From assembly GCA_032718475.1 (NCBI GenBank), contig JAUCBJ010008639.1, forward strand, positions 1 to 33,344: a DNA stretch of 33,344 nucleotides. The letters run 5' to 3'. Position numbers and translations under genes: made by a program. The notes below the pieces were generated by a model. It saw nothing but the letters and a program-made list of their open reading frames with translations, searched no databases and had not been told where the DNA came from. Origin of the DNA: Nemertoderma westbladi (taxonomy: Eukaryota > Animalia > Xenacoelomorpha). Positions 4,814-31,073 of this stretch are shown here, in pieces (position 1 is the first letter of the stretch; each line of letters begins with the position of its first letter).

Positions 4814-5246
4814 ACCGGTACAGTACAACATATTGCAGCTCAGTTTGCAGTTCAGTACCTGAATAGTTATTTTTATTAATATTTTTATATTTCAGTGCAG
4901 AATACTGTATATGTGGTGGAACAAAAAAAATAGCTTAAATCTTAATTGTGCTACTGTATCAGTGCAGAATTCCGGTACTATAATTGTGCTCTGTGTGTGT
5001 TCTGTTTTTTAATATTCTTAGGTTTTATAAATTTCACTTGTTATAATCCGGTTTATACTGTGATATGAATAATTAATTAATTAACATGGTTCGGTTATGG
5101 TAGGTTGGTTTATCGTATATTGTCTAGATTGGAAGTGTAGCCTATTATTATATATGATGGAAAAATAGGAAGTGAATATAAATAAGATTTACCATACTTC
5201 TTATAAATTTTATATTCGACTTTGAATAAATCATAAGGGGAGGGAA

Positions 5247-6484
5247 TGTAAAAGCTTTTGCGGACATAACAAGTCATTTTTCCCGCAATGCGCAGTGTAG
5301 GTGCTTTTGCGGACATAACAAGTCATTTTTGCCGCAATGCGCAGAATACTCTAAAATAGCCCTGAATTTATTCCCCTACGTGACGGGAAGAGATTAGAGC
5401 CCAGATGACGAAATCTGTCAGCTGATTTCCTGTAGACGTGGAATCTCTTTGTTCTGCTCAGCCAATCAGAGCGATTTTCACTTTATTTCTGACAGGGGCC
5501 TATGGAAACTTGCGCAATGCATTACTGTCTTTGTTTACCTTTCTGAGCCTCAGAACCGGCTTGGAATCTTCTGTACTTCTGTGCAGAAGTTTCAGACTTT
5601 GGCCTAAACATCAGATGGCTTTGATTATAAGAACGTAAATCTATTATCTGACGAACCAACACCTGGATCACCGGCTCGCACCTTCCATTATCCTTCCTGA
5701 CCCACCTACCAACCTTCTGACTGACAATCCACTCACCACCCGTCTCACCGGGCCTTCATAAGTAACACATACTGACTGTTCACCGCATTATTTTACTTCT
5801 GTCTACGGTCTGTTATTAATTGTTGTTATATTGATGTATATTGCTGATATATTTGGAGAATACCGATAAATAATCATAAAACCCCCAATCTTCTTGATTA
5901 CTGAAGGTAAGAGGAACAGGTTACCAGTAGCAACTGCGACTTAAATTATAGTGGTTTTTGTGTTAATTAAATGCTATTTCATAATCCCTACAAGTGTCAG
6001 TTGCGATCTTCCTTATATATGATCAAATTCAGTGACGGTCGGCAGATTAGTGCGCAGTAGTGTGAAGTAGTGTGAGGTCGTGTAAAGTAGTGTGAAAGAT
6101 AATAAAACATCTCCTAAAGAATGCGCTATTTACGAAACTCTGTGGCCATCTAGTTGTGATTAGTATAAGTGATAACTCTGTTTTTATACTTAAAGCGCCA
6201 CGTCCTAAAGGAACTGTTAATATTTCCCCGAAAGTAAATATATTGTCAGAGATTATATAGTAACGATCAATCGAATAATACAGTAGGTCTACATTGCAAT
6301 AACTTTCAAGGCTTCCGAATCCAGTCTCCCTTAACTGTGGGTGAATGATCGCGCACAGACTGGCTTCGGCTGATGTAACTTCAGTACACTAAATAATTGA
6401 TATAGGCTAAAGTCGATTTATAAACAAGAGGACAACTAAAATTGGCAGGTTAAACTGCTAACTAAAGGTCTAAAGGCGCGAACA
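5247..6484 (+). repeat. 5' LTR (1,238 bp)
   Basis: TGTAAAAGC...GCGAACA. About 17 substitutions and one 4-bp indel versus the 3' LTR (counted by eye). It opens with a 49-bp tandem duplication (5247-5344) and contains CCAAT (5462), TATAAG (5626), 10-bp GTAGTGTGAA repeats (~6057-6096) and AATAAA (6101). Confidence 0.97.
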
Positions 6485-6496
6485 ATAATAGATTTA
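6485..6496 (+). promoter_or_regulatory. Candidate self-priming primer-binding site (non-tRNA)
   Basis: ATAATAGATTTA follows the LTR's terminal CA directly and is the exact reverse complement of LTR bases 5636-5647 and 22367-22378. There is no TGG-type tRNA PBS at this position. Confidence 0.6.
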
Positions 6497-7144
6497 AGTT
6501 TCTTTATTGCACCATAGGCAATAAAGTCGAATGTACTGGTCGGATGGTAAGCTGTAGGCCTAACTGCCCAACTAGCCGAACCGGTGCTTACAGGTATAGG
6601 TACAGCAGTATTATTTGATTGTGATAATTATATACCGGTAGGTCTTGATATTTAATCGGGGACTGCAGCCCTGGTTTTTTATTGGGGTTTTACTTATTTC
6701 TGTCAGTTTTATTTATCTGTAAGTGTAATATTGAGCAGAAGGCGTGTAAGCCTGCTCAGATTGTATAAATAATTTGTAGGCCAGATTGTTGTCTAGCTGT
6801 TGTTAGGTCTGAGGCGATTGCAGTGTATGTAGAGTATCTGTCCGATAAAGTGCTAGTTAGGAAGGTGGGGGCATCCAGTGTTGTAAGGTAAATCCCCCCC
6901 CCCCCCCCGAAAGAATAAGTCGTACTACTTGGTTAAAATGCCTACTAACTAACCATTTCAGAGTCTGCATATACTGTAGTTTATTTAGGCTTGACAGTAG
7001 TCTGCCAGCATTTGGTCTGTATTTTGTTTAAATAGTCTGCACAGGTAGCGTAATATTTATTATTCAGAGTCTATGCGAGTATTCGCAACCTCCAACTCCC
7101 CAAGTTTATTCCTACAGTAATTGTGCTTGTTATACATACCGTTA

Positions 7145-7267
7145 TAGTTAAATTAACCCCAGTACTACATCAGGGCTGCTTGGCGTAGGTAAAGATTGGT
7201 GATTTTGTGCTCCGGTCACTCCAGCAGATACCGTGGTTCTTTTGGCTGTTCAAGTATATTTAACTGC
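7145..7267 (+). repeat. ~120-bp segment shared with 24975-25096
   Basis: Direct repeat, roughly 90% identical, with an identical core CTCCGGTCACTCCAGCAGATACCGTGGTTCTTTTGGCTGTTCAAGTATATTTAACTGC. Confidence 0.9.
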
Positions 7268-8714
7268 TGGTTATTTGTTTTATAAGTACTTGTACCTAAT
7301 TTAGGGTTTAGCGTACAGTGCTTTCCGAAAGTAATTTAGTGTGTAGGCAGTATAGTTGTGTTGTAATGTGGTTAATAGGCACGTTAGCTCTGGTTGGCTT
7401 CGGTAATTAACCTCTAGGTAAGGACACTCCTTGTACATAACATAGTACTTATAGAGCTAAGACTATAAGTCGTCAGATGGTGGTATTTTCTTATCTGGAC
7501 AACGCAACTTACTTACTACTGCTTTATTGTTTTTCCAATACCATAGTTTCCTGTCAGTTTGTAAGAACCAGAAATTCTAACTCCTTGTTAGGCTGGTTTG
7601 TAGATTTCTTGTAAAATTACCCTAAAAATTGTATGTGTAACTTTTTAGTGTTTATTTAGAAGATTGTAATCTCAAACTGTAATTGTAAGTAATTTGTAGT
7701 AATAAGTAACTTAGTAGAGTGGAGGTGTCTGTATTGGTGTCTCGCGTGCTACTTGTTGGACACTAAAGCAGATAGTTCTACCTTGCTGGGCGTGCAGCAT
7801 CTGTGTAGTGACCCCTTATCCAGAAACAATAACATTTATTTCAAATATTGTCAAAACCCATTATACGGGTATATATATTATAAATCAATTCAAACAGATT
7901 TATAAAATAGTAGGCCTGTTATACATCAATTAGGTCTTAATATCAGTTGGACTACTGCTTAATAACAGTAATAAGTAAAAGGGAAGAAACCCTAAAATTC
8001 AGAAATTCAGTTATTATAAAATAATTGACATTACCGGTATTTACGGTGGGCTTATTATATATATTTATATAAATTTAGGCTGAAATTATATACCGGTATT
8101 CTGTGACTAATCCTAGTCTATAATAATACTTATATATACTATAAGTGTATACCGGTATTTTAATATTATATATATATCACGTTACACTGAGTAACGGTAT
8201 CGGTAATTAATTACTAGGCTTACAGTTGATACTGAATTACTAGACTTGCTTTAACTGTCGTTATAGTAGTAGGCATTCAACTGTAAAATAAATCATGGCT
8301 GACACAAAGCAAACACTGTCAGATAGTCTCCTAGAAAGAACAGTCTGTGACTCAGATAGGAGTATAGAACATCTGAGACCAAAGTCCAAGTCCCCTCCTA
8401 CTGTAAGAAAAGTCATCCCTACAGTAGTAGTATCAGGCCCTAGGCTAGTAAAGCACCATAGGTCTATCATAGGCACTAGGGCTCAAGTCAAGCGGGACCA
8501 AGAGGCAGCTGTTAAACACATCAACACCTAAACCGAGAACTTATTTCTCAACAGCCTGATAACTCTAGCAGTTCAGACACCGAAGAGTTGACACCCGAGA
8601 TCGGAGCAAGGATGGCAGAAGCGGTTTATCCGGATCCACTTCTAATTCTTCCTGGAGCCGTACTCACTAGAGTGTTGATAGCTGTGGAGGAACATCAAAT
8701 CGATTGGGCGAGAA

Positions 8715-8718
<4 letters not shown>

Positions 8719-8749
<31 letters not shown>

Positions 8750-8792
8750 TTATTTATAACGCGCCTTTTAAGGGCAATAAATCAAGGCGCAG
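8719..8792 (-). mobile_element. Tiny 5'-truncated L2/SINE-type 3'-tail insertion, in frame within gag
   Basis: The minus strand reads GCGCCTTGA...AAGGCGCGTTATAAATAA(ATT)n. TSD GAAGTAA at 8712-8718 and 8793-8799; net gain 81 bp, which produces the poly-Asn run. Confidence 0.75.
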
Positions 8793-9554
8793 GAAGTAAG
8801 CGATCGACCAGGGACAGTTATGCGGGATATACGATGGAGGAACTGAGGTCCATTGTAGAGGCGCAATGGAACTTCCCCGGACCCAGACTCCTATTTAACT
8901 TATCGGAAGCTGCCTGGGAGGACTTATACAGGATGGGAGTAGTAAGGAACACTCGAGATCCAGCTGTGTGGAAGAGGTCGGCAGCAGGATATGTCCAGGG
9001 ATTCTTCAGTTCTTTGGAGCGATTAGAAGAACACCTATTTCAACAACGCCAAGGACCTCAAGAGCAGGGATAGCTGCTTTATCAAGTGCGAGAACGAATT
9101 TTACGGATCAGACTACTCCTTTCGGCCTTTGAGGAAGCCTCGAAGAGAAGCCAAGACACATCGTTGCAAGTGGCTGTAAAAACTTGGTTCCAACGGGTGA
9201 GTCTTAAAGTCCAGGGAACGACACAATGGAAAGCTCAGCTAACCGAGCGCATGACCCACGGAGAATCAACAGATGCTACCTTTTCTCAGGTGGAAGGCGA
9301 AGCTACATTCGAGAAACCTCAGAAGAAGGATGCTATTGACATTTATCTGTCGGACTATCAACAATTTATAGGTGTCAAAGTGTTAAGGAGACGGCTAGCT
9401 GGACTTCACCCTAATAGTGAGGGAGCCAAATTTGTGTCAAACTCGTTAGATGCGGAAATATTAGCCGCGGAGCAGGCTAAATTTGATGAAAGCATCCTCA
9501 TCGCTATGGACCAAGAAGAGCAGATAAAGAAAAAGCAAATAGAAGACCGAAGGT

Positions 9555-9700
9555 CAGCGGCCGTGGCAGAATCTGAAAGGAAAGCGGCAGCGGCAGAATC
9601 TGAAAGGAAAGCGGCAGCGGCAGCGGCAGAATCTGAAAGGAAAGCGGCAGCAGCAGAGGCTGAAAGAAAAGCAGCAGTGGCTGAAGCAGAAAAAAGAGCA
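9555..9700 (+). repeat. Coding tandem repeat, (AAAAESERK)-like x~5, predicted coiled coil or single alpha helix
   Basis: Repeated GCGGCAGCGGCAGAATCTGAAAGGAAA units within the gag N-terminal extension. Confidence 0.9.
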
Positions 9701-12700
9701 TCTGAAGAGACAACCCAACTAGAGTTGGAAAATCTTCAAGCGAAGCAAGATTACTTAAATAAACGGAGAACAGCTACTCAGATGCAGCTGCTGAGTTGAT
9801 CTACTCCCAGGAGACAGGGATTTACATCCTCTGATGAGGGCGATACAACAGATCCTGAAGGTAGAGGAAATAAATCTCGTTCCAGTGGACGTAGAAGAAC
9901 GCCACACCGGCAGAAGTTGCCTAATTTGCCTCCGGCTGTGAGAAGGCAACTAGCTAGTGTAGATTTAAGTTATCCTGAGCCTACAGACCAAAGTATTAGA
10001 GTAGAAAGACTCCCTACTATAGTAGATGAGCCCGAAATAATTAGGCCCGTCATTGAAGTCACTCCAGTACTAGAGACCCCTGTACTTCCAGAACCTAACT
10101 CTAAATTCCCTTTGCACAGTACTAAACTACCTATGCCCAGTAGACTAGCCCCGGAATCACTCCCGGTCCTGGACGCCGAGCAAGACATAAATGACTTGTC
10201 TCCCGTCGTCCCCACGCGTCACCCGGCTACCATGTTGGCGGCTCCCGCTTCGGCGGTTGAGTGGGTAGACGAGGGACGGTGGGGGATGGATCGCCTGCTC
10301 GGGCAGCTGGAAGACCATAAAAGGAGGTCTTCACAGCAGGTCCGTGAATTGGAAGGGACTGTTCAGCAGTTAAAGGGAACAGTAAGAGAGAGTAGGTTAG
10401 AGTTGCAAGAAGTGCAACAAAGTATCGCTTTAGAGCGCGATAAATTAGTAAATATACAAATGGGTATACCACCACCCCCTGTAACAATATGTCAACCTGT
10501 TAGGTGTGAAGTATTTCATGCGCAAGGTGTGGAGCCTACACGCATCTATACTGCTAGTGAAGTAGAAACTCGTATAGTAAACCCTATTAAGGGTAATTAT
10601 AAACCCTTTGATAATGATATCCCATACAGATCTGATCATAATCCGAGAAATTTATATACCGATAACTCGATATTAAATAATACAATGGCTCAAGAAAGTT
10701 TTACACGTAAAATGGCTAGAACTGAAGCCCGTCAAGCGGTAAAGGTGGGAGAGGTCGTCAAGTTCAATGGAGATGAGATGAAATGGTTACCTTTTAATGA
10801 ATATTATAAAGATAACATACAGAACTCTGTACCATCTAACGGAGAGAAACTTAGATTCCTCATTGAGTGCCTGGAAGGACCTCCCAAGTTAATGGCGTTA
10901 AAGTTTATTGGACATCCAGATGGATTAAGACAAGTTTGGGATACACTAAACATCAGGTATGGTAATAGGACTAACATAGCTAGGTACTTGTATGCGAAAT
11001 TAGTAGCGCCCCGAAAGTTTCTTAGCAGCGGGATTATAGAGTTTTCCGATGAGATTCAGGAGATCTGTAGACAGCTAGATTGGTTAGGTAAGTCTCAGGA
11101 ATATCAGAGTTCTATGGTTGTTGGAGCCGTAGCATCTACTTTGCCAAAAGGTGGAGTAGGTACTCGTTGGGACAAATGGGTTCTCTATATAATGGACCAG
11201 CAACAAAGAGACCCTACCATGGCTGATCTCATGTCATTCTTAAATGGTGAGGTAAGATTACAGCTCCTAAAGCAGTCCCGAGAGAAGACACCGGAAAGTA
11301 AGGTGAGTGAAAAACCCGTTTCTAGGAGAAAGGTAACACCAGTGTGTTATACGGACGATGGCAAAAGCCAAACCTCATACGAGGAAAACAGCGGTAAGGA
11401 CACTGAAAGATCTTATTATGTCAATAAAATGAGAAAAGACGTAAGTAAATCTAAGTCTCAAACCAGTGACAGGAGAGAACAGGTAACAACTCCTCCTCCT
11501 AAGAAAGCCCGAGGAAAGAACAAGTGTGCACAACACCACACAGGTTAAAGTAAGTAATATCAAACCCAAATGTGCATTGTGCGACGGGCCACATTGCTTG
11601 AGTGGGTGTGATGAATTCTTGAAGAAATCCCTTAAGGATAGACGTGATGTCATGTGGGATAAGCGGTTGAGTTATAATTGCCTAAGACGAGGACACCAAC
11701 AGCGGACCTGTTACTCAGATGCTAGGTGTGCAATGTGCGGCGCAAAACATCATATCTTGCTGCACACAGAATTTGACAGAACCCGCACGAGTCAGGTAAG
11801 TGAGCCCGAACTACATATCCAATTCAGTGATGTGAACGACCCTGACCACAGCTCTGAGATGGAAGGATTCTACACGGACGAATTCTCCGACGAAAATGAA
11901 TCCTGTTATATGATAAACACCGCGGAGTATCGAGCACTTACGTATGAGACTGAAACTGACAATGAAGATCCTCGACTGACTATTCCGGACCGACAACCAT
12001 CTTGGAAAGCGCCAACTTCCTCTGTCGGAATCCGGGAATTTCCTGTGGTTCAGCTGAGAGTCCATGGGCTAGGGACGAGCCTGATAGTAAACGCCCTCCT
12101 TGACTCCGGCAGCACAGGTACATTCATTGACAAAGAACTAGCCAAAGACATCTTTGCTGGACAACCCAAGTTCCGAACTAAGTTGAACCTTTCAGGAATT
12201 ATGCAGGTTTGGAAATCCACAGTAGCCACAGATTACTACGTGGGTGCGTTGTCCACTCCTCAGGATGAACTAGGAGAACATAGCGTAAGGTCAGTAAAAA
12301 TGGTGGTGATAAAGAACTTTGCTACTAGCCAAGTGGAACCTTACAACTGGGATGAAGACCATTTTACCCAGCAACATAATATACCTAGATTCAACACTGA
12401 CTATCCAGGGGTCCAGATATTAATGGGCCAAAATGCGCACGAAGCGCTTGAGACATTAGAAAAACGGCCTGCTCGACCGCAACCATTACAAACGTACGCG
12501 TGAAGAACGAGAGTAGGTTGGTACTTCACTGGACCTTCCCGTAGAACTCTAAGGGAAAGACTCCCTAATGAGAGAGTACATCAGGTGAGTGAATGGGAAG
12601 AAGAAATCAGTGAGGGAGAAACCACACCTGAGGGAACACCATACTCCTCAGACAATGACGATATTAACCAATTGTATGACGAGGAAAATACAATCGACCT

Positions 12701-12734
12701 CCTCACCAACAATCAAGCTTGGATGACTAAAGAG

Positions 12735-14010
12735 GTGAGGTCTCTATAAGGGTGTCCAAAACAGGCGGCGGCGGACTCGTGAGGGTCTAGGGACACGTTA
12801 AATCGATTTTATAGTGCAAGGGAGTTACTGAAGGCCCTCGTGTCTAGCGAACCATGAATCAACATGGTGCCGTGGTACCGTCTAGTCGGCCTGTTGCTGT
12901 ACTGGTAGTCCTGTACACAGTAGAGGTGGTGGCTTGGTGTGATCTGTGGTCTATGTGGCAGGTCTATGTTTGGTATGTATGAGTTGACCAGACTCTTTAC
13001 TGTCTCCGATCGGCTGCCAAAACGTGTCTTTTCCCAGGGTAGCACTATTGGAATGGAGGTGTTGCATCGGAATGGGCAGGATTCTGATGATTCTGTTGGT
13101 ACTACTATTGGAATGGAGGTAGGACCTGGAATATCTGCTGCAAGGAGGGGATGGTGTTGTAGTATGGTCCGAATAAATGATACTCTGGAATCTGTGGTTT
13201 GTGTGTGGACGATCAGTGGCAGTTTGCTTAAGCTTCCTGTTGCTGTGGGTACGTGGTATACGTGAGTGTGTGTATGGCCACTGCGAGTGAGTATGGGAAA
13301 CCTTGCCAGTCGGTTCAGTCGCCGCTGGTTATTAGTAGGACCATATCTTTACTGCGCCCCAGCATACTTTGTGCACACAAAGTTATTTTGCCCTGACGGC
13401 AAAATAAGGTACTCTCGACTCTTTTATCAGTCAATACAATTTTGTCCCCTCTGATTTTGTCACCGATTTGTCTTTCCCGATTATGTCCTCTGTGTGTGCA
13501 TGGTATGTGTCCGATTTTGTGTTTACCGTTGTGTACTTGATTTCGTGAGCATCTGTTGAGTACACGTGTACAGTGACTAGTAAGTGGTGACTTGTTCTTA
13601 GCTTTTAAGCTAGACAGTATTGTCTTTCAATACTGCCGACGAGGCGGGTGAAAACGTGTCAATATTCCATGTTGGGTAGCGCAAGCCCACTTGGGACAAG
13701 ACCGTCGGTTTGGCTCAAGGGCGACCTTGATGCTCGATCGCTATCGACTGGTCCACCCGCCGGTTGATTCTCTGAGTTGGCTCAATGTACAGTCAGGCCA
13801 CAGTAAGTTGACAGTAGCCGACCATCTGGCTACACCGACGAGCTGTGCCGGTGTGATCAGGGGATTGAAAATTGAACCTGGGAAGCATCGGGCTACCCTC
13901 CGGCCCGGTCTGATAAAAACGGAGTCAGACTGGCCCCAAGGGTGGTGGGACAGCGTCCGCCTCGTGGGTGCGCCTCGTAGAGGATCCCAGAAGGACGCAA
14001 GCGAAACCAA
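12735..14010. mobile_element. 1,276-bp non-coding insertion between PR and RT, with no conventional TSD
   Basis: Removing GTGAGG...ACCAA joins ACT AAA GAG to GTA AAC TTG TGC (TKE-VNLC) in frame. Only GT is shared at the two junctions. The insert contains several hairpins. Confidence 0.75.
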
Positions 14011-17000
14011 GTAAACTTGTGCCATCTTATCGATCAGCATGGTGGACAATTTACTTATAATGACGAATTGAACGAAGTGATAGATCGATATAATAACAAA
14101 ATCCATGATGAACACACCGTACGATTCTTTACTCAAGAAGCCGTGGAGCCTAATTCCTACAACAAAGCTTTGTCCGTCGAGGAAGTGAGAGCCAAGCAGA
14201 TTCAGGAAACGACAACTCATTATTTGAAAGATGAAGGTCGCTATGAGATTGGTCTTCCGTTCAGACGGCGAGAACCCAACTTTATAAATAACCGACCTTT
14301 AGCAGAAAAAAGAATGAACCACGAATGTATTATCTAACACATCATTACGTTCCCAAGCCCGGTAAACCCAACAAAGTCCGGGTAGTGTTCGACGGCTCCG
14401 CCCTTTACATGGGTCAATCCCTGAACTCAGAACTGTTGCCGGGACCCAACTTACTCCAATCCTTGTTGGGAATATTATTAAGACTGCGGCAATATTCTAT
14501 CGCTTTTGCTTCGGATATAGAAGGCATGTTCTTACAAGTCAAGGCGCTGGATAGGGATCGAGACAGCCTACGATTTCTGTGGTGGCCTGAAGGAGACCTC
14601 AACCAAAAACCGGTGGAGTACTGGATGACCATCCAGGCTTTCGGGATCATCTCGAGTCCCTCGAACGCTTGTTCAGTAGTGCTGATTACAACCGAGACGC
14701 CTTCTCTAAAGCGGTTATCGACAACATCAAACGGGATATATACATGGACAACAATTTAAAGTCCCTCCCATCGGTGGAAGAAGCCATTGATGTTGCCAAA
14801 GCAATGGTGGAGTGCTTGCAATGCGGTGGATTTCGACTAACCAAATTCACTAGTAACTCCCGTGAGTTTCTGGAATCGATCCCGGTAAAAGACCGAGGTG
14901 TTAAAGATCTAGACCTCATCAAGGACGATCTTCCGGAAACCAAAACACTTGGTTTAAAATGGGCCACGGAGAGAGATATCTTGTTTTTCCAGTTAAAACA
15001 GCGAGATAATCCAGTTAGAACTAAACGGATTTGCCTAAGTATCCTGAGCACTTATTTCGATCCATTGGGATTTATTAGCCCAGTTATATTGGTTGCTCGG
15101 AGCTTAGTACAACAAATGTGGCTTGAAAACCACTCGTGGGATGATCCACTTAAGGGAGAACTACTAAAGAAGTGGTTGAAATGGGAAGATTCTCCACCAT
15201 CCATCGAGAACTTTAGGATTTCCCGTTCATATTTTGGTCACGTTCTCCCCACGTATTCCTATCAACTCCATGTGTTTGGAGACGCCAGCGATATGGGAAT
15301 AGGTATAGTAGCCTACCTGAGAGTTGAAACTCCAGATGGAATTAAAGTTGCCTTGGTCACCTCTAAGGCCTTGATAAACAACAAACTACGAGTTCCTCGA
15401 GCGGAGTTAAAGGCGGCTCTATATGCTACAGCCATCGGCCGGAATGTAACAGAACAGATCGACTATCCACTGGAGAAAACTGTCTATTGGACTGATGCTT
15501 TACTCGTTCTGGAATATATAACCAATGAAGTCTGCCAGTTCAGCGTCTTTGTTACCAACAGAGTAGCCATTATACTTAGTCGCTCTAATGTAGATCAATG
15601 GAGACATTGCCCTGGGACGATTAATCCAGCCGACATCACCTCTAGAGGAGCAACCCCTCAAGAACTGATAGATACTCCAGACTGGCTAGGTGGACCCGAC
15701 TTCCTAAGTAAAGAAGAGGATGAATGGCCTCCTCATCTCACCACGGCTGAGATTAGACAAGCCAAGGGAGCGGAGAAAGTAAAACCTATAACCCAGATGA
15801 GTAAATCAAAGTTATTTAAACCCGTGATAGATCTGTCTGTATTACACATCTCCAGGGACGACGCTATGGATCTAAACTCCCCCACCACGAACAAATCTGT
15901 TATAGAAATCAGAGAAAGAGACTGGAAATCTGGAACACTAGACATCTCGCAAGGACTCTCACCTCTCTTGCAGATAGCGATAAATCATTATAGCTCCTGG
16001 AATCGACTTTGTAAGGCCGTTGTGTATCTCAAGAGATGTTTCCATCATCACTATTCCAGGACGAAGATCGCTAATGATACCGCTCCAACAATATCCGAAA
16101 AGGTCCATGCTATTAACGATCTGCCCACTTACAAAGTGTCGGATAGGTTTCTGATGGAGAAGATCAGTTACCAAGAGCATGAGGAAACCAATAAACAGAT
16201 ACTGAGACTTCTGCAATGCTATGAAGATCCCAATAAGTATTTCCTGTTGTTGAGAAATCCACAGATGCGCTTAAGGGATCGTTTCTCTAGCACAATGATA
16301 GATGGGTTAATACGTGTTGGAGGGAGACTAACTAATGCTCCATTGTCCTTTGACACTAAGTTTCCCATGCTCAATAGAAATCTTGAAATACAAATCAAAA
16401 TGATTGTAGATTTTCACAGTAGGCTTTACCATGCTGGTAGAGAACGAGTTCTTAGCGAAATTCGAACTCGCTATTATTTCCCTAAGCCCCGTAGAGCTCT
16501 GAACCAAGTTCTTAGGAACTGTATACCCTGTAGGAAAGCATTCAGTAGGCCTTTAACACAGCGAGAGGCAGAATTACCTAGGGAACGAGTAAGCTTCTAT
16601 GAACCACCCTTTACTAATACTGGTGTGGATTTATTTGGCCCTATTGAAGTATATCGTGCTAGGACTATAGTCAAGCGATGGTGTGTCATCTTTGTCTGTA
16701 TGACTTGTAGAGCGATCCATCTAGATATGGTGAACGATCTATCTACCAACAGCTTCATACTGAGTTTACGCCAACAGATCGCTCGCTTTGGAACTAGCAA
16801 CACGATGACATCCGACAAGGGAACGAACTTCATTGGTGCCAATAATGAGATCAAAGCTTATGTGAAAGATTGGAACCAAAGACAGGTAGATGATCAGCTA
16901 AGGGTAACAGCATCTAGCTGGACCTTCAACGCCGCCGACGCCCCTTGGTGGGGAGGAAGTTGGGAGAGATTGATAAGGAGCGTGAAGACCGCATTTCACT

Positions 17001-17627
17001 TTATAGTGCCGTGCTGCGCGTATCTCACTGACGAACGTTTGCGGACGTTAATGGAAGAAATTGCTGCCTATCTTAACGAGAGACCGCTTATGCCAGTCTC
17101 ATCGAGTCCCGACTCCCTAGAAGCGCTAACACCCGCGCATTTCCTACTAAAGAAACCTGTAGCCATGCTCCCGCAATCGGAAATCACGGACGGAGACGAA
17201 TACTGCCGACAAACTTGGCAACTTATGCAGTTATTATCCCGTCGTTTCGCTGACCATTTCGAAAAACATTATCTCCCTACGCTACCACTTCGAACAAAGT
17301 GGTTTGCGCAGCAAGAAAACGTCAGCGCTGGAGACATGGTCCTTATTGTGGAATCAGATCTTCCACGAAAGCGGTGGCAGACGGGTCGTATCATCGAGAC
17401 TCATATATCCGATGATGGTTTAGTGCGATCAGTAGAACTCGTCGTCATGCGACGTAACTTTTAAGAAACCTGGAATTGTATTCGAAACACAACAACTCAA
17501 TCGCCCAGTTGGTAGTTTATGTTTACTGGAAAGAGACCGAGAACTATCCGGAAACTATGGAAGGCAAGATACTCTTCCCATGACCACCTCCCTAATCCAA
17601 CAAACATCTAGGGACTCCTCAATGTAA
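14011..17627 (+). pseudogene. pol: BEL/Pao pol: RT, RNase H, integrase and C-terminal domain
   Basis: GRYEIGLPF; YYLTHHYV...KVRVVFDGS...GPNLL...DIEGMFLQV...LRFLW...FGIISSP; YMDN (for YxDD); LHVFGDAS...PRAELKAA...WTDA...NPADITSRG; H-H-CxxC; VDLFGP...SDKGTNF...WERLIRSVK. A frameshift at ~17461 continues to RPVGSLCLLE and a stop at 17627. There is a deletion near 14320 and a frameshift near 14670. Confidence 0.96.
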
Positions 17628-18168
17628 CAGCGTATGGAGTGGGTGTGTGACTGACTACATTATTTTGTATTTGTTTTTATTATTTTTATATTTATGTATG
17701 TATTATTACGTAATTTTAAAATTATAATCGTTTTGTTTAATTTTATTTAGTAGAATATTATTTTAGCGATTATTCAGTAGATTAGTGCAATATATATTCG
17801 TGTTTATTACTTAATTACTTTTTTTATATATTTCGTTTAACGGTGAGAAATAATCCATTTTCTCTTTCCTTACTGTCCATATCATATTTTAAATACGTGA
17901 CTACAGTAAGATGAAATGTCCGTACTTATGAAAGTACAATACCGCCCCTACTATACATACTAATACACCTACCATACATACTACCATATATTAGGAATGC
18001 AAAGTTCAGATCCTCGTGTCTCGGCTAAACCAAGCTCTGGGTAGACCTTGGAAACGACTTGCCTCTTCTCACTGACATTGCTTCTTGCAATATTGCTCTC
18101 ATACCATATATTAAATGATACATATAGTAGAATGATGTCCACTTAACAGTAGCGTAAAAATGCAAAAT

Positions 18169-18580
18169 AAATCTGTTAAACCCTTTGACCATCTGAATTT
18201 CTAGTCGATTAAGATATCGCGGCACCCACCGATATACTTGAAAGACAAAATTCTAGAATCAGTGGTTAACGTCCCCAGACATGTTCTGGAATAGATAGGT
18301 GCCCATCTTGAATATTAAATATTTAATAAATATTTATAAAATCTATTAAAACAAATGTTATAATAGAGTAAAAAGCAGACAAATAAACTCTAAGGAGTTT
18401 GTAAACCAAGAAAATTTATAAATAAAAAATCTGTTAAAATTCAGATCCTTTAAAATTCTAGTCGATTAAGATATCGTAGCACTTACCGATACTCTTAAAA
18501 AGACAAAATTCCTAGAATTAAGGATCCTAGTCCCCAGACCTGTTCTGGAATAAAATTGTGTCCATTTTAATATCAAATAA
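18169..18580. repeat. Diverged ~150-bp direct repeat pair in the pol-ORF3 spacer
   Basis: AAATCTGTTAAA...TTCTAGTCGATTAAGATATCG...AAGACAAAATT...GTCCCCAGACmTGTTCTGGAATA at ~18169-18320 and ~18428-18580. Confidence 0.85.
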
Positions 18581-19380
18581 TAAAATTTACGGGAATAAAT
18601 TTTAAATTCATATCCTCTCATGAATTTGATAAATTTGATAAAATTTATACAATTTATAACATTCCCAAAATTCCATTAATTAATAGATCATGGGAGCGGA
18701 GATTCACCCTATTAAGTATATTAGTGTGCGAGAATCTCCAGTGTATAGTCAATAGCCGATAAAATTCATAAATCATGTATAAAGGGGAATATTGACAATT
18801 AAAGAATTACTATTAAATGGCATCCCAGATCTGTATGCATGAGAATTACCCTAATTCTACTGCTAGCTTTCCATAATGTCACCATAGCAACAACCACGCT
18901 AGAATTAGGAGCGAGTTAAAAGAACAATAGAAAGCTTGCCCCATTGAATAGCATACGGAATAAATAGCACCCTGCTAGTATCCAGGGATACATAATAATA
19001 ACGTGGCATTCTGGAAGGCACTTGACTAACGGACAAATGGCCCGAATGTGTACAATTTGTGACAGGTGTGTGGAATTTGTGCATTTATAGGTGAATGTTA
19101 CTACTAAAGTATGATTACAGTAGCGAGTCGCAGTTGTGAAAGTTACCCTGCCTCTGTAGCAAGAACCTGAAGTAATTCTAAGCCCTTGGGATGGACAGTG
19201 GAGTGACTCACGCTGGTTATTGTTGTTGTTGTGTAGCTACTACGTTGGTGAGAGGCACAGCGATGACAGTACATCAGCGCTGAGGATCTTGTGCTGTCCG
19301 GGGGCATTCAGGGGGAGGCAGCGACGACCGCTAGCCTAAATTATAATTAATTATAATAGCAATAAACTCATATAGCAGCT

Positions 19381-21900
19381 ATGACGGAGTTGATAGAAGA
19401 TGATCTTGGTATCAGGGAGCGATATACCCAGCCATTGCAAGCGTTTGTTGATAGTTTAATAAGCCATCATAAGCCATCAAAACCATAATTCATCCCTCGA
19501 TGGTTCCCCATTTTGGAGACAAACTCTTCGCCACGGTACAACCCCAACCGGTTGATATCAACCTAAGATCTAGAGATCTTATAGCTGACGCTCCTATGTT
19601 ACAACGTCCGCCAATCGAGGCCACTCGTGTTGATGGCATATTGACGCTAGCGAACGCTAGCGATATTGACGGTTGATTGACGCTAGCGAATGTGCCACCT
19701 TATGGCATCCAGTGGGTATGACCATAGAAAACGCCACTAAAGAGTGGAACAAAACTCTTAACGTTATCGAAATGTATGGAGTTGTCACTTACGATAACAA
19801 AGGTAGCGTTCTGGTTGGAGAACTGGGAACTACGCGAATGATACACATACGTGGACTAGCTGGTTCTACCCATGTGTTTACTCGAGCGTGTTCCGACGTG
19901 ATGATTATTCTTTTGAGACTCTCACCGAGATACAAAAGAAACTCCGACATGGACAATTCGAACTCGCACAGCGTTACGTCACTGATACCGAGCGCAAACC
20001 GGCCATGGGTATAGATGGATCGATGTTACCCCAGCCAGTGCTCGAGATGTTGTTTAACGAAAGAATCCTTAAAATCGGCTCAGCTGTTTATGGAGATCTC
20101 CAGAATGACTTCAGGAACATGGAGAATATCCCATATCCTTTCGTAGACACCCAGCTGATTGCTCCCTGGGCAGAAGGCCGAGGTTTCTTCCGAACTATAT
20201 ATGCCAATACATCCAGCGGCATCAATAAAGTACAACAAACCTCCATCGGACATCTTGCCTTCCTAGAATATGGATGGAATTTCAAAGTCGGAAACCCTAT
20301 CAGCTATCAACAAGTATATGGTGATCATTATTCTCGATTATACTTCGACGGACCATTAACTGCACCTGGTGTTGTTTATAGCTTCATGAGTGTTCCACTT
20401 CGTCCCTCATTAGCTATATACACTATCTTCAAGAACGCCGCACTTGTCAGTTGGCTAGCCGATGTGTGCAGTCGCACTATACGCGCCCATCCCTTGTTAC
20501 TCGGAACCAAACTCGCCAAGCTAGATGAACACAATAAATTCATCCGATTCGAATGCTTTAGGCGCTTTCTGACTCTGTTCCGTAACGTTGATAGTCAGTT
20601 CAAGGACCGCGCTCTGACTAAGCTCAGCCTAAGAGACTCAGCTGCTGAGTGAGAAGTTAGACAGTGCTGGATTCGCCATTTTCAAGGACGTTTGTATACA
20701 GAACTTACATTCCTCTGTTATACAAAGACCCCGAATCCACACGCAGGTTATTCTATCGTGGAAGTCCAAACAGTGGGTTTGCTTGAGGAGACAGCTAGAC
20801 CTACCTCAGCTATGCAATTGGAAGATGAACCAATTTGCTTAGAGTCCGAGGAGATTCAACCCACAGCGCCCAGAAGCAGTGACAACGACTACGTCCTGGA
20901 ATGGTATCAAGGTCCACAATGTCTCACCGCATATGATTATCGGCATGCCAATTATGTTTCTAGGAAACGTTGCCGATTATGCGCATCACGAGACCACTTC
21001 ACCCCGGTGGACTCCAGCGTACCCTGCTCCTACTTTTAAGATCAACCTACCCTGGAGATCTATTGTGCGTATTGTAGACTCAATAACTTACACACCCTCG
21101 CAGTCTGCCCTCAATTTATGACTCAATGCCATCATTGCCAGTTTAAAGGACACGCAAGTTTTGATTGCCCTTTCAACCGAGATATAGAAAGCGTAGACGA
21201 AATGGTTGCCCTTTGCTATATTCGCGTCTGGGAAGCTAACGCAGATCTCCATTGCGAATCACGTCATCGGTACTACCCTGGACGTGCCTATGAAGGAGTC
21301 TATGCATTTTACCCATATCTCTTTGCTTCAGTTGAGCAAAAATCTCGCACACCTAGCTACGAGTTAATGAAGCGTGTTGGCGAGAATATTTCGACCAAAT
21401 TTGTTCGCAAGTATCTTAGGAATATTAATCCTAACGACCTTAATTCCTATAACTTGATCAACTTCATCCGTCAAGATCCGGAATATGGTGACTTGTTCAT
21501 GAACTCGCATCCAGAACTACAAGAAGTTCATAGACGACCCTATGAATATAGAGCCCGCGAACGTGAGTTGGAAAGAACCATCAAACCGAGGAAATTTCTC
21601 ACTACTCACAGTCCGCCTACCGCTCTCGTGCAAATGACCCGTCAGGGACCAGTAAGAGCTGCTGTCCTGAAACGCGCTCTAAAGGTTGTTCGACCTTGTT
21701 CCACTGAGGTTGGTATCGATCAACCGGGTACCTCAACCGGTGGATATACCGACCGTAATCCTAAACCTTCCGATGCAATTGTATTGCACCCCTCCCCCAG
21801 GAGTTATAGCCCTCCTAGTAAAGTGGGTCATCCCAAAGAGAAAAGGACTCTTACTAGCCTCAAAAAACTTCGTAAACGCCGTTCACGAAAGAAGGACTAA
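19381..21900 (+). pseudogene. Extra ORF3: DEDDy-like 3'-5' exonuclease domain, three CCHC zinc knuckles and a basic tail
   Basis: ORFs 19888, 20692 and 21118 are one frame broken only by stops at 20650 and 21037. Motifs: VVTYDNKG (ExoI-like, D at 19793, upstream frame); LPQPVLEMLFNERILKIGSAVYGD...FVDTQLIA (WRN/EXD ExoII block); PLRPSLAIY (ExoIII-like); knuckles at 20971-21168; C-terminal KKLRKRRSRKKD. The start at 19381 is tentative. Confidence 0.75.
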
Positions 21901-21969
21901 TCGTTTAGAGTATTTTTATATTTTTGAAACTGTGATTTTTATATTTTATAGACTTAAATCCCATTTTCT

Positions 21970-21977
21970 GGGAGCGG
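21970..21977 (+). promoter_or_regulatory. Polypurine tract
   Basis: GGGAGCGG directly abuts the TGT of the 3' LTR. Confidence 0.8.
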
Positions 21978-23211
21978 TGTAAAAGCTTTTGCGGACATAA
22001 CAAGTCATTTTTCCCGCAATGCGCAGTGTAGGTGCTTTTGTGGACATAAGAAGTCATTTTTGCCGCAATGCGCAGAATACTCTAAAATAGCCCTGAATTT
22101 ATTCCCCTACGTGACGGGAAGAGATTAGAGCCCAGATGACGAAATCTGTCAGCTGATTTCCTGTAGACGTGGAACCTCTTTGTTCTGCTCAGCCAATCAG
22201 AGCGATTTTCACTTTATTTCTGACAGGGGCCTATGGAAACTCGCACCATGCATTACTGTCTTTGTTTACCTTTCTGAGCCTTAGAACTGGCTTGGAATCT
22301 TCTGTACTACTGTGCAGAAGTTTCAGACTTTGGCCTAAACATCAGATGGCTTTGATTATAAGAACGTAAATCTATTATCTGACGAACCAACACCTGGATC
22401 ACCGGCTCACACCTTCCATTATCCTTCCTGACCCACCTACCAACCTTCTGACTGACAATCCACTCACCACCCGTCTCACCGGGCCTTCATAAGTAACACA
22501 TACTGACTGTTCACCGCATTATTTTACTTCTGTCTACGGTCTGTTATTAATTGTTGTTATATTGATGTATATTGCTGATATATTTGGAGAATACCGATAA
22601 ATAATCATAAAACCCCCAATCTTCTTGATTACTGAAGGTAAGAGGAACAGGTTACCGGTAGCAACTGCGACTTAAATTATAGTTTTTTTTGTGTTAATTA
22701 AATGCTATTTCATAATCCCTACAAGTGTCAGTTGCGATCTTCCTTATATATGATCAAATTCAGTGACGGTCGGCAGATTAGTGCGCAGTAGTGTGAAGTA
22801 GTGTGAGGTCGTGTGAAGTAGTGTGAAAGATAATAAAGCATCTCCTAAAGAATGCGCTATTTACGAAACTCTGTGGCCATCTAGTTGTGATTAGTATAAG
22901 TCATAACTCTGTTTTTATACTTAAAGCGCCACGTCCTAAAGGAACTGTTAATATTTCCCCGAAAGTAAATATATTGTCAGAGATTATATAGTAACGATCA
23001 ATCGAATAATACAGTAGGTCTACATTGCAATAACTTTCAAGGCTTCCGAATCCAGTCTCCCTTAACTGTGGGTGAATGATCGCGCACAGACTGGCTTCGG
23101 CTGATGTAACTTCAGTACACTAAATAATTGATATAGGCTAAAGTCGATTTATAAACAAGAGGACAACTAAAATTGGCAGGTTAAACTGCTAAAGGTCTAA
23201 AAGCGCGAACA
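21978..23211 (+). repeat. 3' LTR (1,234 bp)
   Basis: Direct repeat of 5247-6484, followed by TSD GGGAA. Confidence 0.97.
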
Positions 23212-24974: not shown

Positions 24975-25096
24975 TAGTTTAATTAACCCCTGTACTACTT
25001 CAGGACTGCTTGGCGTAGGACAGACTGGTGATTTAGTACTCCGGTCACTCCAGCAGATACCGTGGTTCTTTTGGCTGTTCAAGTATATTTAACTGC
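24975..25096 (+). repeat. Second copy of the 7145-7267 segment
   Basis: Direct repeat of 7145-7267. Confidence 0.9.
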
Positions 25097-25433
25097 AAGT
25101 TATATGTTGTATAATCATATATTAAATCGGCTAGCCTACTGCTATACTGTTACTGATTGCTTTACATGACTGCATGATTTTATATGATTTTAAAAAATGG
25201 CAACGCCAGATTCAGATGAATTTTCCTCAACAATTAGCACGATTATATCGATAATTAAGACAGCTAAAGAGAAACGTAGCACTTCAAATGATGACAAACG
25301 CGCGATGCTGAGCAGCCTCACTCGTTTGAATGTTTTATATATGACGTCTGTAAGCCGAGTGGCCGATGCCCATAATGAAACAATACTCGTGAAGAACGAA
25401 ACACTTACAGCAAAAGATAAACTAATCGCACTA

Positions 25434-28400
25434 CTACTACTACTAGGTCGAGCGAACTCGGACAGTGGAAATGAGATCCTTCCAGGCTTCGCGATTCTCC
25501 ATAGTTGTCGTAATTTCGTTTCTCCCAAGTTCAGTATCCCTTTCAAGTTGATCTATATATGTTATGGCAGGTCGTCCACGACTACGCTTTCCATGAGTTG
25601 GTTGCCAGAGAAGTAGATCTGGTATGACCTCGTCTTTACTTCACCAGCAGTGCCCACTGAATCTTAATCTGCGTTCACGGAGGGTGGTTGATACAGGTGG
25701 TATTGTACCATAAAGCTCGGCGTTTGTCATGTGTTGTCTCCAGCTGATGTTTAGGGCTGCCCTTAGTAGTCTTGTGTAGCAACCATCAATTCGTTGTTCA
25801 AGTGATTTAGTCAGTGTCCAGGTCTCACCCCCGTATAAAAATACACTTTCCACTGTGGCTCGATAGAACTTAGTCTTCAGGTGCTTGGAGAGATCTGATT
25901 TCCAGATGGTATCCATTTTTGATAGAGCTACCCAAGCCTTTGCTTTCCTAACTTCTATGTCCTTTTTGATACTCTCTATCCATGATCCAAGGTACTGGAA
26001 GTCATCGACCTTCCTTAGTTGATTATTATCAATGGTTGTCAAGTTTCCATCAACATTAAAGGTCATGAATTCGGTCTTGGTAGCATTTATATGCAATCCA
26101 ACCTCCTTAGCAGCCCTCTCCACTTTATTTAGTAGAAGCTGTGCATCTGCTAGCGTATTAGAGAGCAGGGCGATGTCATCCGCAAAGTCGATGTCTGTGA
26201 CTGTAGTTGCCGGATATCTACTACTTCTGCATTCTTGAAGTGTGAATCCCAGATCTTCACCCTTTGTGGCCGTCCTCATTGCGTAATCCAGCACAATTAC
26301 AAATAGTAATGGTGCTAATGTGTCACCTTGCAGTACGCCAGCCAGGATTGAGAAATACTCAGTTTCACCATCTGGTGAGAGTACCTGCGCTTCTGTGTGA
26401 CAATATAACAATCCAATGCCAGCAACAATTACTTCTGGTATTCCATAAGCTCTTAGGATTTCAAGCATTTTACCTCTATGGATGGAGTCGAATGCCTTCT
26501 TGAAGTCCACAAAAGTCATAACTGCGGGGAGATTCTTTGACTTAATTCCTTCAATCAGTCTCTGTAGTGCAAGTATCTGAGCTATTGTTGATCTACTTGG
26601 TCGAAATCCATTTTGGCTCTTACGCAGTAGTTTCTCTATGTGAGGCCTAATCCTATATATAATCATTTTATTGTATATTTTGGCAGCTACCACAAGCAGA
26701 CAGATCCCACGATAGTTTGTTGGTATGCCGAGGTCTCCTTTCTTATGGAGAGGCTTTAGTTGACCTTTAGTCCAAATTGGTGGTGGCTTTTCCCCTTTTA
26801 ACATCCGGTTGCAAACATTCAATAATGGTCTATTTAGCACTCCAGTTTTCCATACCTCCGCTGGGATTTCATCTAATCCACTCGCTTTATTATTGGACAT
26901 GCTTTTAATGCTTCTTTGGAGTTTCTGTTTCATTAGGTAGTGTCTTGTCATATATTTTCCTTGTAGGGCTGACCTCGATGTTTGGTGGCTGCCCAAGCAA
27001 GTTGCTGAAGTGATTTTTCCACTTCCCAACACGTTCTTCAGGACTATCGGCTTTGAGGCGCCCCTTTGCACAACTTTTCCGACCAGATACCTCATTTACA
27101 GTTTGCCAGGTAAGTCTTGATTGTTGCTGTATGTGAGCAGTTGTAATTGCTTCAGTTTTATCCTGTATGTACTTTTCCTGGCTGTTGTTGTAGGCCAATT
27201 TAAGATCGTCCTTAGCTTTCTCAACCTTGTTAATGTTGTTGGTTGTTCGGTTTTAACTTTGTAGGCTATCTTAAGATCTTCTCTCTTACAAGTAACCTCA
27301 GAGTTTTGCCATGGCACATACTGTTTTCGTTTAGGTTTCTGGGGGATATGCCTCTTAGCTGATTCCTTGTGGGCTGTTATTGTATTCTGGTATATTGAAT
27401 CAGTGGATTGGTCTTCATCCATTGACTGAAGTGCTTCAAAGCGGTTTTGAACTTCTACTGTATAAGCATCCTTTACAGCATTGTCAGTTCTGAGTTTCTC
27501 CCAGTCATAGTTGATTTGCTTGCTTGTCCTGGGTTTGCTGGCTCTCAAACTGAGTCTGATCTCTGCAGTCACAATTCTGCGGTCCGAACAAATTAGGTTG
27601 AACGAGCTGTATGCCTCGCAGTTGATGATGCTATTTCTCCACTTTTTGTTTATAAGGATGTAATCCAGTTGTGCTTTGGTTCCATTAGGGTATTGAAAGG
27701 ACCATAGCTTCCCCTTACTCTTTTCGAATGTGTTGTTTGTTGGTATCAATTCACATTCTTCCATTAGGTCTAAAAGTAAGTACCCATTTCTGTTAGAACT
27801 GGTGTTATAGGTGTAACCCTTGATGTCTTCTGGGCCAATTTGCGCATTCAGGTCACCAGCAATGACTTTAACATTGTGTTTCGGGATGTCCTTAATAAGT
27901 CCAGTCAGTTCTTCATAAAACTTGACTGCTTGTTCTGGCTCTGATGCATTGGTTGGACTGTAGCAACATATAACTGTTGTCTTGGGATTCCCATCAAATG
28001 TTGCGATCATAACCCTGGAATTTATAGATTCGATGTTGTTTAGGGTCTTAAGTGCAAATGGGCTTAGCAGAATTCCTACTCCAACAATTGATGCATTGGC
28101 CGAGTTTCTTACTGCTGAGCTTGTTACCAACGTCCATCCATTTCCAATGTCATTGTACTTTATGGCAGTGTCTTCATGACAAATCCGATGTTCTTGGATG
28201 CAGATGATGTCGATGTTATATTCCATTGCCAAAGCGACCATGTCACCCTGTTTGCTCTGTGCTTTCAGCGTGCGTGCGTTCATTGTAGCAATTTTTAGTG
28301 TCTTTTTACATTTCAACAAGTTGGTTCCTCTTTCCTCTCTGTCCTCTGTTCCAGTAGCCAATTTATCGACCCCAGCCTGGTGTACCACTGAGGGACGCGG

Positions 28401-28827
28401 TCCTTGTTGACCCGGGCGATGACCGAGCCGGTATTTCTCCTGGAGGGTTCTCATACTCATATCTTTCAGTTGCGGGAGTAAACTGTTTGTGGTCGCAACG
28501 CGCTACAAGCGTCATTGCAGTAGGTCGCCGTTGGTTGACTACCTTCTGCCGACCTTGTCAGCATGTCTAGCCGTTGGTTGATTACCTTCCGTCTATCCAT
28601 GGCCTACAGCCCTGCTGCCAACTGTAGGGGTCCATTTGTTACACCCTGAACCAAGTGTGCCTCCTGGGTTAGGTTACCTAACACTAGTAGAGGAGCATCC
28701 AGTATAGACAGGGCGGGGCTTGTATCATCTCTAGTGCAGATGCGTATCAAGCCTTTGCCTTCAATGGTGCCCTAGGCGCTATAGCCCTCAATGACTTATT
28801 TAGTTGACGGGGCTGAACCAATCCACT
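25434..28827 (-). mobile_element. Full-length RTE-clade LINE (~3.4 kb)
   Basis: TSD CTAATCGCACTA at 25422-25433 and 28828-28839; (TAG)n tail; ~370-bp 5' UTR; single APE-RT ORF. Confidence 0.95.
25443..28460 (-). pseudogene. RTE APE-RT ORF, with frameshifts around 26900-27250 and a premature stop at 25641
   Basis: APE: IATMNARTL, ICIQEHR, GDLNAQIG, QLDYIL, SDRR (for SDH). RT: YRGICLL, QNGFR, FVDFKKAFDSI, GVLQGDTLAP, FADDIAL, YLGS. The reading continues past 25641 to ...VRVRST*. Confidence 0.93.
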
Positions 28828-30828: not shown

Positions 30829-31073
30829 GCATCCCTAGGTATTATTATTATAAAGAGCGTCAGCCTGCGTTTAATAAATATATTTTAATACAAAACAGGT
30901 CGAACGCAAAGAGGCTTATAATGAAGACGAGTACTGCATTGATTATATTCCTATAAACCACCTGGCTTTGCATATTGAACGTGCGTTTGGAAATAAGTTC
31001 GTGCTACCCTTCCGTGGGTGGTAGATGTTGCGGTTATGTATTGGTGGGTAGGGGGAGGGGGGGGGGGGGGGGG
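30829..31073 (-). repeat. Dispersed repeat (copy B), inverted relative to 1800-2044
   Basis: Reverse-complement match to 1800-2044, including the poly-G/C end. Confidence 0.85.

Follow-up and report, generated by a model that had tools for sequence, protein, structure and literature searches.

How does a retrotransposon of the BEL/Pao type start reverse transcription when no TGG-type tRNA site adjoins its 5' LTR? The question is raised by an element in Nemertoderma westbladi, on a stretch of 33,344 nucleotides (contig JAUCBJ010008639.1, positions 1 to 33,344 of the forward strand) that is called the window in the following. Positions 5247-23211 are a BEL/Pao LTR retrotransposon which is young but coding-defective. 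In a self-comparison of the window its two LTRs (5247-6484 and 21978-23211) are identical at 1217 of 1238 positions (98.3%), and further BEL/Pao hallmarks, namely direct LTRs with TG...CA ends, a target duplication and a polypurine tract, are present. The original prediction had assigned the element to BEL/Pao, and this assignment is confirmed by the Pao-type Pfam domains of gag and pol (PF03564, PF05380, PF17921 and PF18701) and by protease, RT, RNase H and integrase motifs in the expected PR-RT-RH-IN order. There are 257 homologues; the 120 listed show 26-43% identity, and the listed ones have PF05380. The copy is coding-defective because of frameshifts and stops, and some 1.6 kb of DNA between protease and RT has no match; activity of this particular copy is therefore not implied. 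The family as a whole is high-copy and diverged, as seen when four sequencing runs were compared over 5200-7300. The features of the element are as follows.

5242-5246, + strand: left target site duplication, GGGAA, 5 bp
5247-6484, + strand: 5' LTR, 1238 nt, TG...CA ends
5462-5466, + strand: CCAAT box-like sequence motif
5626-5631, + strand: TATAAG, only 10 nt upstream of the primer segment
5636-5647, + strand: predicted self-primer, exact complement of 6485-6496, predicted cut 5647/5648
5648-5790, + strand: segment replaced or skipped in many sister copies, breaks starting at 5646-5657, at the end of the primer segment
6101-6106, + strand: AATAAA, candidate poly(A) signal, 3' LTR equivalent at 22832-22837
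6485-6496, + strand: predicted primer-binding position of non-tRNA type, from sequence complementarity
6502-6526, + strand: 9-bp hairpin (predicted fold), immediately 3' of the primer-binding site
9800-12503, + strand: gag (DUF1759, zinc knuckle) and protease, split between two frames
12550-14150, no strand assigned: protease-RT gap of about 1.6 kb, a possible insertion, unmatched in six homologues tried and without clear terminal repeats
14152-17464, + strand: RT with a frameshift at its start, followed by RNase H and integrase, all of BEL/Pao type, from domain and motif matches
19807-21900, + strand: additional reading frame, roughly 700 codons long and interrupted by two in-frame stops; it has CCHC-like knuckles and a basic tail
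21970-21977, + strand: polypurine tract, directly before the 3' LTR
21978-23211, + strand: 3' LTR, in which 22367-22378 repeat the primer segment
23212-23216, + strand: right target site duplication, GGGAA

An env reading of the 3' frame at 19807-21900 was rejected, as neither Pfam nor the atlas supports it (no env match in either; the best atlas score of 0.85 is a lead only). Upstream of the DUF1759 gag region, 8296-9799 of the + strand holds reading frames with no Pfam match above the cut-off, a repeat based on 27 nt (9528-9701) and, near 8720, an AAT microsatellite; a 258-nt duplication lies within the element at 18166-18579. The LTR contains a strong donor-like GTAAGA at 5907 and the leader an acceptor-like tract at 6706; splicing between these candidate sites would delete the binding site and could yield a translation-only RNA. 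The window holds no second copy of the element; a 141-nt piece of leader at 24975-25114 (91% identical to leader 7145-7285) has neither LTR nor binding site and lies outside the element beside the end of a LINE. Elsewhere in the window there are frames of non-LTR retrotransposons on the - strand (endonuclease and RT at 25641-28502, a second RT fragment at 3-1058), a 53-nt tandem array (937-1413) and a dispersed repeat with internal duplication in two inverted copies (1800-2185 and 30829-31073).

At the junction of LTR and leader, the sequence ATAATAGATTTA (6485-6496) opens at the first base 3' of the 5' LTR and is, base for base, the reverse complement of positions 5636-5647 in that LTR. The partner 12-mer is repeated at 22367-22378, both LTR copies being identical. 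This part of the original prediction is confirmed. The 12-mer has three matches in the window, where 0.01 would be expected, and among 15481 interior 12-mers the one at 6485-6496 is the only one whose reverse complement lies in the LTR. Of the 12 bases of the match, 11 are A or T. Chance, which had been regarded at first as reduced only, nevertheless produces at least 12 nt at offsets 0-5 in no more than 41 of 20000 trials (about 0.002) under a second-order Markov model of the LTR. As had been claimed, a TGG-type tRNA site is absent next to the 5' LTR; the first TGG occurs at 6537, 52 nt further on. The 18-nt site complementary to a host tRNA 3' end, which the ICTV gives as a BEL/Pao feature, is likewise absent here. 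ARAGORN found no tRNA gene in the window or in 81 loci of relatives. A published screen for self-primers (PMC6317226) accepts at least 10 bp starting 0-5 bp after the LTR; the present element has 12 nt at offset 0. A primer built by splicing was also considered for this element and rejected, as a scan of donor-acceptor joins gave nothing better than the contiguous 12 nt.

Sister copies of the same family show how well this site is kept. Data over 6445-6545 came from 157, 98 and 85 contigs of the sequencing runs X1, X2 and X3, representing two samples, while X4 gave none; the shares obtained from runs X4-X6 were small or nil. In runs X1-X3 no substitution was listed at a frequency of at least 2% for positions 6485-6495; substitutions begin at 6496, and the T run gains one T in about one eighth of the depth. 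In the loose ends listed, the first base after the LTR is T or G; this first base of the site varies among sister copies. A normal TGG site in sister copies had been named as a possible refutation, and none occurs in the listed variants or among the loose ends listed for X1-X3. Because the substitutions start at 6496, the conserved core is about 11 nt long and the longer imperfect extension is not conserved. The extension of the pairing to about 5629/6504, which had been part of the original prediction, is thus predicted by folding but is not kept by the sister copies. Of the hairpins predicted in U5 and at 6502-6526, the latter has its listed substitutions (6511, 6513 and 6514) all in the loop; a conserved hairpin behind the site in relatives was considered too, but its predicted energies (-2.5 to -12.6 kcal/mol) were obtained without a control and are not relied on. 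On the LTR side, in the best-supported rows, many sister contigs agree with this copy as far as 5646-5657 and depart from it from there to 5741-5789. This divergence (5648-5790) begins where the primer segment ends. At that point the model described below would place the boundary between DNA derived from the 3' LTR and DNA derived from the strong stop. The sister contigs are too short to join 5636-5647 and 6485-6496 in one copy, so no covariation is claimed inside the family.

Complementarity in relatives had been set beforehand as a test of self-priming. Relatives were taken from the pol alignment (the best 80 of 548 confirmed metagenome loci and one viral locus); 46 of these 81 loci were used, the other 35 being near-copies or without 5' LTR or leader. 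Viral contigs provided just the one locus, with no usable LTR. Partners were scored both in contiguous LTR sequence and across GT-AG joins. An attempt to choose LTR ends by the terminal inverted repeat alone was dropped as too noisy. The cleanest test comprises eight elements in which the repeat by itself defines the LTR end. All seven non-tRNA elements among them pair over 10-15 nt with their own LTR (this element 12 nt, L004 11, L015 10, L044 15, L054 11, L058 12 and L061 11), whereas cross-pairs between elements reach 9 nt at most (0 of 56 reach 10) and the TGG-type control L002 reaches 4 nt only.

In a wider scan all CA dinucleotides up to 500 nt from the end of the leader served as candidate LTR ends; its region bounds and splice rules were fixed after the sequences had been read, which makes it less blind than the repeat-fixed test. 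For the 28 full-LTR elements, this one included, the strict rule gave cognate pairing of at least 10 nt in 23 and of at least 11 nt in 19, compared with 79 and 20 of 756 cross-pairs. Under the relaxed rule the corresponding numbers were 26 and 22 of 28 versus 111 and 36 of 756, so that five (strict) or two (relaxed) full-LTR cases stay below 10 nt. Where LTRs are incomplete, one of eight elements reaches 10 nt and seven fall below. None of 11 TGG-type elements, a class assigned by motif and by eye, reaches 10 nt; the presence of a TGG-type site in these 11 relatives indicates that the feature varies within BEL/Pao.

In each of the 25 elements that were scored for primer position, the first paired base lies 0-6 nt behind the LTR end, and the pairing is 10-16 nt long. 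The partner lies across a GT-AG splice junction in 17 of them and is contiguous in eight, including the present element. The 3' end of the primer is AC in 19, AT in five and TG in one (L058, where the best-scoring 12-nt join is tied with a different one at the repeat-defined end), and the following base is C in 16 and G in seven (23 of 25); this element ends in AT and is followed by C. Among related families the primer letters differ and the binding site changes with them (L016/L028/L035 and L043/L057/L061), so that complementarity is kept with different letters, as the test had asked. In L061, 121-165 and 6901-6945 are two LTR halves on one contig that differ at the primer: in the 5' half the second part of the primer is preceded by a pyrimidine tract and AG, in the 3' half the primer is contiguous, and the sister families L043 and L070 carry a GT donor at the corresponding point. 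To judge from the letters, this difference looks like precise intron loss.

For the phylogenetic analysis, RT, RNase H and integrase (37 rows, 869 columns) were used in an IQ-TREE quick search with LG+G4; five near-copies and 31 undetermined rows were left out, and the rows do not include the named BEL/Pao clade references (Sinbad, Suzu, Sparrow, Surcouf, Dan, Flow and Tas). In the unrooted tree the element falls into one group with 23 further self-type elements, all 10 TGG-type rows lie outside it (SH-aLRT 99), and a FastTree analysis of 73 rows agrees. The self/TGG label requires two changes on the tree, compared with 8.9 in shuffles, and none of 500 shuffles was as low. The element itself sits on a long branch (1.35) of this unrooted tree, its best identity being 41%. 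One exception is L075, a self-type element that is placed among tRNA-type elements with L072, possibly because of a second origin or of misplacement; its site is 11 nt long, splice-built and self-complementary. The original prediction had inferred an independent evolution of self-priming in a BEL/Pao lineage. Judging from its distribution on the pol tree, the self-complementary signature is not peculiar to the lineage of this element but, as far as the alignment indicates, a property of a broad BEL/Pao clade.

It is quite likely, judging from these comparisons, that the element primes its own reverse transcription with LTR positions 5636-5647, which would act as an internal primer cut after 5647. 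Transcription would start upstream of 5636, and 5636-5647 would fold back onto 6485-6496. A cut after 5647, probably made by the RNase H of the element, would provide a 3' end from which the reverse transcriptase could extend. If the RNA is unspliced, synthesis from 6484 to 5648 should yield a minus strong-stop DNA some 837 nt in length, attached to an RNA whose last base is 5647. This strong-stop DNA would lack the sequence 5' of the cut, which would presumably be recopied from the 3' LTR; such recopying would account for the fact that relatives keep an intron inside the primer despite the need for splicing.

Where the transcript starts is of importance for this model. The 5' half of the LTR contains a single TATA-like word, TATAAG at 5626. 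A TATA box lies 25-30 nt from its start site, and if TATAAG acted as one, transcription would start after the primer segment. The motif is indeed present where it had been noted, but it lies 10 nt before the primer segment and cannot plausibly start a transcript at 5630-5636, the start that had been named as support for the Tf1 model. The CCAAT motif at 5462 suggests that transcription may begin upstream of the primer segment. In predicted folds the helix 5636-5647/6485-6496 is part of the lowest-energy structure for starts at 5600-5636; its probability is 0.80-0.99 for starts at 5600-5629, 0.35-0.41 for 5636 and 0.05-0.06 for 5560. The support which such modelling lends to the helix is weak and depends on the start. 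Since a primer needs a free 3' end only, the transcript may well start earlier. The primer is probably internal because the primers of relatives straddle introns or, in six of 25 elements with a TATA-like box upstream, lie 48-144 nt downstream of that box. The strict Tf1 layout, in which the primer is the first 11 or so nucleotides of the transcript, had been proposed originally; the TATA spacing here and the intron-straddling primers of relatives argue against it, and it probably does not apply to this element.

Other explanations have to be weighed against an internal self-primer. The duplex might be structural and act in packaging, in dimerisation, in 5'-3' cyclisation through the copy in the 3' LTR or in controlling the poly(A) signal at the 5' end, while another RNA primes. 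Cognate pairing alone, indeed, shows neither cut nor extension, and in an alternative fold part of the primer segment pairs with 6099-6104, over AATAAA. However, the pairing begins in 25 of 25 elements just behind the LTR, where a primer must sit, it has a narrow length range and a conserved 3' end, and it replaces the TGG site instead of occurring alongside it (0 of 11 TGG-type elements reach 10 nt); we therefore regard this explanation as unlikely. Quite unlikely, too, is an own-sequence primer that comes from elsewhere, either from 22367-22378 in the 3' LTR of another packaged RNA or from a short or processed LTR transcript. The segment is identical in both LTRs, and with TATAAG as the sole TATA-like word in this half of the LTR the start would fall at about 5655. 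On the other hand, the primers of relatives, with their introns or their distance from TATA-like boxes, normally lie within the 5' transcript, the CCAAT box points to an earlier start, and cutting the 3' copy would presumably sever the template for strand transfer.

Priming at 6485 by a host tRNA half or internal fragment, the LTR match being secondary, has a precedent in the half-tRNA priming of Ty1/copia lineages (PMC6317226). More than 20 different binding sites that each match their own LTR and not one another's are left unexplained by tRNA fragments, so that this explanation must be considered very improbable. The least credible one is a chance match in AT-rich DNA, the true primer site having been lost in this copy. 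The base composition of the match and the defective state of the copy would fit; the composition-aware chance figure, the conservation of the site in sister copies and the recurrence of the pattern in relatives speak against it, and on such sequence comparisons this explanation appears largely refuted already.

For the internal self-primer, the evidence leans, with less confidence than for the element itself, towards a wider interpretation: a deep and widespread clade of animal BEL/Pao elements may have given up tRNA priming and use instead an internal self-primer, 10-16 nt long, whose cut site is conserved. The host spliceosome would, in most families of this clade, assemble the primer across an LTR intron and so tie replication to splicing, and the present element would be an early-branching, intron-free member. 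If true, tRNA-free priming would have arisen independently once more, in a family which the ICTV describes as tRNA-primed, with a twist not described for Tf1, namely an internal primer that is often made by splicing. A self-priming clade would also explain the unannotated primer sites of many BEL/Pao families. In addition, a simple sequence rule for classifying BEL/Pao families would follow, and the predictions are exact (a cut after 5647 and strong-stop DNA of about 837 nt). In the literature search, which extended to the openly available portions of papers, no account of BEL/Pao self-priming or of splice-built primers was found; subscription papers, Repbase entries and supplements lay outside its scope and may hold one. 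Term searches in the BEL/Pao surveys PMC3118150, PMC554778 and PMC6238403 gave no mention of PBS or tRNA, and the passages compared from PMC13524379 and PMC3601003 contain nothing on BEL/Pao self-priming.

Among known systems, the ICTV profile of the Belpaoviridae gives an 18-nt site for a host tRNA 3' end, tRNA priming and a genome of 4.2-10 kb, and calls BEL/Pao replication poorly understood (PMC8742986). The present element resembles Belpaoviridae/Semotivirus in its LTRs, gag, PR-RT-RH-IN order and polypurine tract (PMC8742986); unlike them it has no tRNA site, spans 18 kb and has a 1.8 kb leader and an extra frame. Self-priming has been described for the Tf1/sushi group and predicted for Tcn1 and TAR (PMC6317226, PMC4600332 and PMC6934838). 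The TAR lineage (Houba and Osr-1, plant Ty1/copia) is similar in that its predicted self-priming, too, is deduced from complementarity of this kind to the LTR (PMC6317226), and differs in its copia domain order and its occurrence in plants; the mechanism is thus predicted to have arisen more than once. In Tf1 the first 11 bases pair with the site, and the RNase H cut falls between base 11 and base 12 (PMC7175516). Tf1 and Tf2 of Schizosaccharomyces pombe, Tj1 of S. japonicus and the Tf1/sushi and Tcn1 groups of Ty3/gypsy share with this element the lack of a tRNA site and about 11 nt after the 5' LTR that are complementary to an LTR segment (PMC7175516, PMC4600332 and PMC6317226). In contrast to Tf1/sushi, the pol of the present element is of the Pao and not of the Ty3/gypsy type, its loop between primer and site is 837 nt long, and the cleavage that has been demonstrated for Tf1 is only inferred here. 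As far as its sequence allows a comparison, the element thus probably works like Tf1 in outline, with an internal primer and without being a member of the Tf1/sushi group.
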